DNA from: Escherichia coli
GTDB taxonomy: Bacteria > Pseudomonadota > Gammaproteobacteria > Enterobacterales > Enterobacteriaceae
NCBI RefSeq assembly: GCF_003334335.1
Contig: NZ_QOWQ01000127.1
Reading direction: 5' to 3' (one strand)
Length of the DNA: 1,035 nucleotides
The position numbers and the translations under genes were made by a program. Shown one piece after another: positions 1-1,035 of the stretch. Positions within the stretch are counted from its first letter, which is position 1; each line of letters starts with the position of its first letter. The notes under the pieces are model-generated. The model was given only the letters and a program-made list of their open reading frames with translations, did no database searches and had not been told where the DNA came from.

Positions 1-119
1 TTACAGAAAAAATACCGCTCACCGCCCTGTACCGTCAGGTCGATTTCCCAGAGCACCACCCGCGGTGACTGCTCTGATTTAACCGACTCGTTCAGACTTT
101 CTTCGTGAATATCCTGCAT
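1..119 (-). CDS. L: Minor tail protein L (lambda gpL family), N-terminal 39 codons only. Partial: continues past the window start. ATG at 119..117.
   Basis: Seen in sequence: reverse complement of 1..119 translates from ATG as MQDIHEESLNESVKSEQSPRVVLWEIDLTVQGGERYFFC with no stop. This matches the N-terminus of lambda gpL as I recall it (MQDI...VVLWEIDLT...GGERYFFCNEQNEKG...). The start shares one nucleotide with the M stop (TGATG), and an AGGTGG SD-like motif lies 7 nt upstream. Confidence 0.88.
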   Translation of the reverse strand, partial: MQDIHEESLNESVKSEQSPRVVLWEIDLTVQGGERYFFC

Positions 120-448
120 CAGTTCACCACCTGCTTAAACTCCGCGCTGAACTCAACGCGCAACATCCCGACCCGCGCAGACCACCCGGCACAGGTCACC
201 TTTATCTGCCGGTATGCATAGGGTGGCTTCCACAAAAATGCCTTCCAGCCACCGTGCTCTGCCAGGAACGCTTCCAGATGCCGGGCCTCCTCCCGGGTCA
301 CGGAAAGCGTCACCCTGTATGTTTTCAGGTCAGCATTCAGCCCTGCCGCCATACGCTGTGAGTACCCGTCACCAAAACGCACTTCACGCACCGATGGCTG
401 CGAGTTCACCTCCATATCCGGTTTCACTTTCCAGCGAAAGGTTTTCAT
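119..448 (-). CDS. M: Minor tail protein M (lambda gpM family; tail tip assembly), complete, 109 aa. ATG at 448..446, stop TGA at 121..119.
   Basis: Seen in sequence: ORF of 109 aa, MKTFRWKVKPDMEVNSQPSVREVRFGDGYSQR...KVTCAGWSARVGMLRVEFSAEFKQVVN. From memory, lambda gpM is also 109 aa with near-identical N-terminal (MKTFRWKVKP), central (VRFGDGYSQR, EEHGGWK) and C-terminal (RQIKVTCA...MLRVEFSAEF.QVVN) blocks. A GGGGAG Shine-Dalgarno-like motif sits 6 nt upstream of the ATG. Confidence 0.93.
   Translation of the reverse strand: MKTFRWKVKPDMEVNSQPSVREVRFGDGYSQRMAAGLNADLKTYRVTLSVTREEARHLEAFLAEHGGWKAFLWKPPYAYRQIKVTCAGWSARVGMLRVEFSAEFKQVVN
127..132 (-). promoter_or_regulatory. Shine-Dalgarno-like ribosome binding site for L (AGGTGG on the minus strand), 7 nt upstream of the L start codon and embedded in the 3' end of the M coding sequence.
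   Basis: Seen in sequence: minus-strand reading ...cAGGTGGtgaactgATG. Function is inferred. Confidence 0.5.
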
Positions 449-1035
449 CGCCCGCTCCCCGATAACAGACCGCCATCACGCAACTGCAGCCGGAGCTCAT
501 CCTGCGCACCTTTACGGGCCATCTCATACACCGCTTTCATCAGCTGCGGCCCGGCCTGTCCGTTGATGCCGTCGTTCTGAATCACCACGTGATTGTTCTG
601 ATTAAAATTAATGCCTTCGGCCCGCCGCATCTGCGCCGGACTTCCGGCAGCACCCACATACCCCCCTTCCGCATAGCCCCGCATCAGGCGGTACAGGTTC
701 CCGACACCAATCCGGCTGGTTGCCTCCTTCGTGAAGACAAACTCCCCGCGGTGGACAATCCCCGCTGGCTCATATTTGCCACCGGTTCCCGTAAATCCCC
801 CGGTCGCGAAATGGAAGTTCGCCGCCGCAGCCTGAATGGCCGTCCCCGTGGAAGCGGATGCGCCACCACCGAAAGCACCACCAATGGCGCTGCCGATACG
901 CCCGACAATCCCCACCATCGCCTGCTTCAGAAAAATCTCTGTCAGCATGGAGAGCACGGAACGGGTGAAACCACGCCAGTTCTGTTCGCTGCCGGTCAGC
1001 ATCGCTGCCATATTCTGTGCAATACCGTCAAAGGT
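445..1035 (-). CDS. H: Tail tape measure protein, C-terminal portion (lambda gpH-like). Partial: the reading frame stays open upstream of the first in-window Met to the window edge at 1035 (TFDGIAQN precedes MAAMLTG...), so the true start lies beyond the window. Stop codon TGA at 447..445.
   Basis: Seen in sequence: long minus-strand ORF (track 445..1011, 188 aa from first Met) that my own translation extends without a stop to 1035. It ends ...LRLQLRDGGLLSGSGR* and its stop overlaps the start of a recognisable gpM homolog by 4 nt (ATGA). Position immediately upstream of M and L, plus the Gly/Ala-rich hydrophobic C-terminal region, fit lambdoid tape measure proteins. Identity is by synteny and recalled similarity, not by a search. 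Confidence 0.85.
   Translation of the reverse strand, partial: TFDGIAQNMAAMLTGSEQNWRGFTRSVLSMLTEIFLKQAMVGIVGRIGSAIGGAFGGGASASTGTAIQAAAANFHFATGGFTGTGGKYEPAGIVHRGEFVFTKEATSRIGVGNLYRLMRGYAEGGYVGAAGSPAQMRRAEGINFNQNNHVVIQNDGINGQAGPQLMKAVYEMARKGAQDELRLQLRDGGLLSGSGR
455..460 (-). promoter_or_regulatory. Shine-Dalgarno-like ribosome binding site for M (GGGGAG on the minus strand), 6 nt upstream of the M start codon and embedded in the 3' end of the H coding sequence.
   Basis: Seen in sequence: minus-strand reading ...tcGGGGAGcgggcgATGA. Purine-rich, SD-like motif at appropriate spacing; function is inferred. Confidence 0.5.
778..957 (-). other. Gly/Ala-rich hydrophobic segment within the tape measure C-terminal region (about 60 aa: VLSMLTEIFLKQAMVGIVGRIGSAIGGAFGGGASASTGTAIQAAAANFHFATGGFTGTGG), with small-residue spacing resembling glycine-zipper / GxxxG motifs.
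   Basis: Seen in the translated sequence: a run dominated by G, A, I, V, L, F, S and T with very few charged residues, including G-x-x-G-x-x-G-x-x-x-GG-x-x-GGG. A membrane-interacting or channel-forming role is inference; no prediction tool was run. Confidence 0.45.

Follow-up and report, generated by a model that had tools for sequence, protein, structure and literature searches.

The genes H, M and L of the phage lambda tail are separate complementation groups defined with amber mutants, and Katsura and Kühl are said to have reported in 1975 that M- and H- lysates provide the remaining activities in vitro. Both points argue against a strict dependence of M on the translation of H, or of L on the translation of M. 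In the lambda late operon from Nu1 to J, 10 of the 19 junctions overlap, with 4-nt overlaps at four of them (A/W, W/B, Z/U and H/M) and a 1-nt overlap at one (M/L), which marks the arrangement as generic. The lambda virion contains 6 gpM, 3 gpL and 3 gpH according to one recent structure (PMC10721106) and 6 copies of gpH according to another (PMC12617516), leaving the copy number of gpH disputed between them. With 6 gpM, 3 gpL and either 3 or 6 gpH, the proportions of H:M:L needed are therefore 1:2:1 or 2:2:1, and not 1:1:1.

Gene overlap itself is common, being found in about 15% of co-directional prokaryotic gene pairs (PMC6728339). Huber et al. (2019) found 13 of 14 overlapping pairs to be strictly coupled, including four of the five from E. 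coli (PMC6728339); these five are native ATGA pairs, and the exception, bioBF, initiates de novo (PMC6728339). A limited literature search found no direct evidence for coupling of H, M and L in lambda.

Gene content and junctions of the window

The window, a 1,035-nt stretch of E. coli DNA, carries H, M and L on its minus strand, so that the two overlaps between them read TCAT (445-448) and CATCA (117-121) on the plus strand (Table 1). By homology, the window is assigned to the H-M-L part of the tail operon of a lambda-type siphophage. The H frame is open from 1035 to its TGA in both the ORF listing and the translation; its product scores 191 bits against TIGR01541 (tape_meas_lam_C; cutoff 104.75), in an alignment that runs to the profile end, and is 82.7% identical to the corresponding part of lambda gpH, aligned through the last residue. 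M residues 2-108 cover model positions 1-108 of the 108 in PF05939 (phage minor tail protein; E=4e-38), and the protein is 80% identical to lambda gpM and matches the lambda gpM chain of PDB 8iyk (chain M, E=2e-55); in all, 30 gpM chains from five lambda tail cryo-EM entries are matched. The L part is 72% identical to lambda gpL residues 1-39 and reaches 31.5 bits against TIGR01600 (profile positions 1-29), below the cutoff of 70.75 because the window holds just 39 aa of the protein. The gene calls of the first-pass annotation (tape measure, M and L) are borne out by these matches, for L over its N-terminal part.

Table 1. Coordinates of the genes, overlaps and candidate signals in the window
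Feature	Position	Strand	Description
Tape measure gene H, 3' part	1035..445	minus	196 codons and stop TGA 447..445; equivalent to lambda gpH 658-853
Gene M, complete	448..119	minus	109 aa; distal tail protein (Dit) of a lambda-type tail tip; PF05939
Gene L, 5' part	119..1	minus	First 39 codons; tail tip hub protein by homology; open to base 1
H/M overlap, ATGA	445..448	minus	M start ATG 448..446 over H stop TGA 447..445; 4-nt overlap
M/L overlap, TGATG	117..121	minus	M stop TGA 121..119 has one base in common with L start ATG 119..117; 1-nt overlap
SD-like GGGGAG	460..455	minus	Last codons of H; 6 nt before M ATG; anti-SD duplex -7.7 kcal/mol
SD-like AGGTGGTGA	132..124	minus	Last codons of M (Q-V-V-N); 4-8 nt before L ATG; anti-SD duplex -7.2 kcal/mol
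Possible local mRNA hairpin, M/L junction	116..159	minus	Pairs UGA and AUG (3' arm) with M codons about 30 nt upstream; weak evidence

Over its full length the window shares 99.5% identity with its best phage match, Escherichia phage PhiR12_2_star, in which H, M and the full L gene are annotated, and it is most closely related to Stx-converting and other lambdoid prophages rather than to lambda itself. Related copies of the module were found in 3668 of the 5426 complete E. coli genomes, with a median of two per positive genome. The window is a very common lambdoid prophage tail module, and this H-M-L segment probably originates from an E. coli prophage. The H part (445-1035) is roughly equivalent to gpHC, the C-terminal fragment of about residues 690-853 that is cleaved off gpH to give gpH*.

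Both gene starts are unambiguous: an in-frame stop lies 10 codons upstream of the M start and six codons upstream of the L start, with no start codon between in either case. The first-pass annotation had described the two overlaps without a strand, and both are present when the minus strand is read. They are co-directional stop/start overlaps and share this geometry with coupled pairs of the Huber type. As bare motifs, ATGA occurs five times and TGATG four times on the minus strand of the window; what is not random is that they fall at the ends of three ORFs supported by homology and that they are identical to the lambda junctions. Among 80 viral contigs or loci with 100% identical M, a set informative for junction variation on the H side only, nine H/M junction variants were found, all of which keep ATGA. 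At M/L, 79 of 80 independent contigs have the same junction string.

The embedding of SD-like motifs within the upstream ORFs, also proposed at first pass, was confirmed at both junctions. On the L side, the pairing may alternatively involve AGGTG or GGTGA, at 8- or 4-nt spacing respectively. Both anti-SD energies are moderate: when an equally good match was sought within the 20 nt preceding each position of this G-rich strand, they were equalled by 11% (M) and 16% (L) of all minus-strand positions. Before M, a GGAG core lies 6-7 nt upstream of the ATG in all nine variants (80 loci) while the neighbouring bases vary, and it occurs in two codon phases (…GGG AGC GGG CGA TGA and …GGA GGC AGG CGA TGA). 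This conservation fits selection on an SD, although a glycine-rich tail would likewise favour G-rich codons. Before L, lambda, phage 21 and BP-4795 have the same AGGTGGTGA as the window. This motif overlaps the conserved F-E-Q-V at the C-terminus of M (GAA CAG GTG), and its likeness to an SD is thus in part a by-product of protein conservation, and not independent evidence.

The first-pass annotation had also concluded that the junctions leave no room for a promoter, terminator or moron gene. Within the window this holds, as no intergenic space is left between the genes; a scan of both strands gave no promoter-like site, and the coding strand is free of terminator-like sites. The sole terminator-like site in the window (749-767, plus strand) is antisense to the genes and occurs at chance frequency, and a permissive search of the whole window gave no match to any Rfam family. 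Alternative-frame and antisense ORFs at 214-465 (plus), 105-221 (plus) and 384-527 (minus) had no PHROG match and were rejected as spurious. This confirms the window as a standard lambdoid tail module in which the frames are intact and neither junction hides a further element. As a rule for the family the conclusion failed, given relatives with extra ORFs at these junctions and one with an annotated terminator and promoter.

Two near-identical phage records have split tape measure genes. PhiR12_2_star lacks one G from a G6 run of H (window 661-666, CCCCCC on the plus strand), as a result of which H is annotated there as two CDS, one of 811 aa and a 61-aa C-terminal ORF (6405-6590, locus numbering) that ends at the same ATGA. 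The loss may be a real frameshift mutation or an error in sequencing the homopolymer; should it be real, in a viable phage, it offers a natural test of whether M needs full translation of H. In phage PhiR5_1, H lacks a different single nucleotide, at window base 785, and the resulting frame stops at a TGA overlapping an in-frame ATG (window 682-686, minus-strand TGATG; the Met corresponds approximately to lambda gpH 775). This produces a separate 79-aa ORF (651-890, locus numbering) corresponding to the PHROG family phrog_10930, which matches residues 118-196 of the window's H part with E=1e-46. Split tape measure genes with an internal TGATG junction appear to recur in databases.

The two junctions across gpM-family relatives

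The junctions were re-read from sequence in 20 annotated phages whose M proteins range from 99% to 26% identity. From the tape measure gene to M, the distance is -4 in lambda, 21 and PhiR12_2_star, -8 in BP-4795 and Evi, -1 in 606R10, Bcep176 and BR141a, and 0 to +5 in OQ658365, mEp237, HK544, Vibrio H8 and Rhizobium Y2_17_1. At least one extra ORF stands between the two genes in six phages (Rovert, Ulliraptor, Midgardsormr38, Mcat4, S135, where it is on the opposite strand, and vB_AbaSI_1), and in Pseudomonas phage phiPMW they are separated by +102, with an annotated terminator and promoter. From M to the next gene, the distance is -1 in six phages (lambda, 21, PhiR12_2_star, BP-4795, Evi and Rovert) and -4 in a further six (Ulliraptor, Midgardsormr38, OQ658365, mEp237, HK544 and BR141a); it is +8 to +13 in 606R10, Bcep176, phiPMW and Vibrio H8, and +35 to +60 in S135, vB_AbaSI_1 and Rhizobium Y2_17_1, while in Mcat4 the M domain is fused into a larger protein.

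M and L therefore overlap, by -1 or -4, in 12 of the 20 phages, and the overlap persists down to about 30% M identity. A tight tape-measure/M junction is accordingly a property of the lambda lineage, and M/L the more widely conserved tight junction. In distant phages of Serratia, Erwinia, Moraxella, Salmonella and Acinetobacter, one to five small hypothetical ORFs lie between the tape measure gene and M, a position that outside the lambda lineage seems to have taken up insertions repeatedly. In the seven loci concerned, that of phiPMW included, the stretches lie (locus numbering) at 704-1129, 41-1139, 914-1135, 890-1144, 870-1109 (opposite strand), 896-1054 and 1121-1223. The general point is one of a tight M/L junction across the gpM family, with small extra ORFs recurring at the tape-measure/M junction of distant relatives.

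Burkholderia phage Bcep176 carries gp66, an additional gene of 335 aa, between M and L (1542-2549, locus numbering), and hence the M/L junction is also not inviolable. In Moraxella phage Mcat4, the gpM (PF05939) domain forms the N-terminus of a 728-aa protein with several PTR (PF12789) repeats (1228-2721, locus numbering); this is an extended Dit and not one of the 109-aa, ring-only kind. An M-L fusion, hinted at by the long PHROG profiles phrog_14 and phrog_18, was rejected in Mcat4, the one case examined, as the protein consists of the M domain and PTR repeats with no L.

The type of M/L junction differs between groups of phages. Five of the six ATGA-type M/L junctions are essentially without an SD (-2.5 to -3.8 kcal/mol). 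HK97-like and Pseudomonas phages have ATGA without an SD (M/L junctions at 1530 in three loci and 1539 in a fourth, locus numbering), and the lambda lineage has TGATG with an SD-like AGGTG, so that junction type and SD presence seem, in the phages surveyed, to covary by lineage.

Proposed reinitiation at the overlaps and its alternatives

Partial, and not strict, termination-reinitiation coupling of H, M and L is the reading we favour, and we hold it to be probable without regarding it as secure. H, M and L would be read off a single long late transcript, on which ribosomes ending H at its UGA would sit within 1 nt of the M AUG, and those ending M within 2 nt of the L AUG. A fraction of the terminating ribosomes most likely reinitiates at the overlapping AUG, aided by the embedded SD-like motifs, and de novo initiation by free 30S subunits probably also occurs at the M and L starts. 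The expected outcome is expression of M and L that is broadly tied to that of H, with no fixed 1:1:1 ratio. We infer reinitiation, and its share of M and L synthesis, from junction geometry only.

What speaks for partial coupling in particular is the predicted accessibility of the M ribosome-binding site, combined with the SD-like motifs at both starts. Folds around the M start show no excess stability relative to shuffled sequences (z=+0.5 for 100 nt and z=-0.7 for 51 nt), and in the centroid of the 100-nt fold both the SD and the AUG are open; with this site predicted to be unstructured, de novo initiation there is possible. Strict coupling is also argued against by virion copy numbers that depart from 1:1:1 and by distant relatives in which a gap, extra ORFs or a terminator and promoter separate the tape measure gene from M. 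For L, the best comparative hint comes from the relatives, since the SD-less ATGA junctions between M and L are hard to explain without reinitiation. They hint that reinitiation after M can be what L depends on for its translation in the gpM family.

The first-pass annotation went further, in proposing that the overlaps serve stoichiometric translation of the tail proteins. This is not supported, given the gpH, gpM and gpL copy numbers of the lambda virion; with a need for gpM and gpL of 2:1, start/stop overlaps alone are no proof of stoichiometric coupling. Another reading would have the two overlap geometries set the virion ratio through graded reinitiation, such that overlap type encodes tail-tip stoichiometry: at AUGA with a GGAG SD, nearly all ribosomes would go on to the next gene (gpH 6 : gpM 6, following the six-copy model of 2025), and at UGAUG about half of them (gpM 6 : gpL 3). 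We give this idea very little credence.

The alternative to partial coupling that survives best, which we consider possible but unlikely, is that the overlaps result from genome compaction and from the easy origin of ATGA and TGATG, with M and L translated essentially de novo from their own SDs and coupling contributing little. ATGA arises easily because an A after ATG creates TGA in the next frame, and overlaps are abundant both in the lambda Nu1-J operon and among prokaryotic gene pairs at large (PMC6728339). The SD-like motifs at both starts and the predicted lack of structure at the M ribosome-binding site fit this explanation as well, the bioBF pair offers an E. coli precedent (PMC6728339), and at these junctions relatives function despite gaps of +2 to +60 nt or inserted ORFs. 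The amber complementation of H, M and L points in the same direction. Against it stand the SD-less ATGA M/L junctions of HK97-like relatives, which imply that L can depend on reinitiation, as well as the coupling of four of the five E. coli overlaps tested (PMC6728339) and the retention of the M/L overlap at low M identity.

Coupling of M and L could in principle operate through unfolding instead, if the hairpin at 116..159 were to hide the L AUG and be opened only by ribosomes translating the end of M; the folding results make this very improbable. The predicted hairpin has an energy of -16.8 kcal/mol and is retained in the centroid of the 100-nt fold around the L start, and the same fold is predicted in lambda at -14.5 kcal/mol. 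Its z-scores are only -1.8 and -1.6 respectively, with 13 of 200 shuffles folding equally well in the window and 13-16 of 200 over the window and lambda together. The hairpin arms are constrained by conserved codons (RVEF and VVN), and persistence of the fold in lambda is thus not independent evidence. An alignment fold of six relatives with the same -1 junction gave a consensus of just -2.9 kcal/mol and a covariation term of -0.05, that is, no covariation; as a family feature the hairpin was rejected, and locally it is borderline.

Finally, although the 1-nt deletions in PhiR12_2_star and PhiR5_1 show that indels do occur in the H 3' region in databases, the suggestion that the junction frames are a sequencing or assembly artefact, with the real genes separated or fused, is effectively refuted by the end-to-end alignment of all three ORFs with lambda proteins free of any frame break, by profile matches that extend to the profile ends, and by the retention of ATGA in all nine H/M variants and of the M/L string in nearly all contigs.

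Comparison with known systems

The pairs studied by Huber et al. and those of the window are alike in being co-directional, in overlapping as AUGA or UGAUG, and in having the SD inside the upstream ORF. They differ in the nature of the evidence, as coupling was measured by Huber et al. (2019) with premature-stop reporters, whereas in the window it is read from sequence geometry. The authors propose a local structure that blocks de novo initiation; in the window, the M start has no convincing predicted structure and the L start a borderline one only.

The HK97-type modules (HK544, mEp237 and Pseudomonas phages) share with the window the order of tape measure, M-like Dit and L-like hub, and they too have overlapping M and L. 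Their tape-measure/M distance is +2 to +5 or -1, and their M/L junction is ATGA (-4) with no SD (-2.5 kcal/mol), in contrast to the -1 overlap and SD-like motif of the window.

The closest described system is lambda itself, to which the first-pass annotation had looked for a comparison of the junctions. In the lambda record (J02459), H occupies 10542..13103, M 13100..13429 and L 13429..14127, giving overlaps of -4 (H/M) and -1 (M/L), the same as those of the window; the annotated lambda sequence has thus always contained this feature. Lambda and the window also have in common the gene order H-M-L, an M of 109 aa and a GGAG-type SD before M. The M/L junction sequence, CAGGTGGTGAACTGATGCAGGAT, is nearly identical in the two, and the H/M junctions are nearly the same, ...CCGGAGGTGGACGATGAAG in lambda and ...CGGGGAGCGGGCGATGAAA in the window. 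The SD before M is weaker in the window (GGGGAG, -7.7 kcal/mol) than in lambda (GGAGGTGG, -10.8 kcal/mol), and the proteins are 80% (M), 83% (H C-terminus) and 72% (L N-terminus) identical. Beyond correct annotation, the H/M/L overlaps thus have little significance: they are already known, being the lambda arrangement in a common prophage variant and an ordinary feature of a compact operon.
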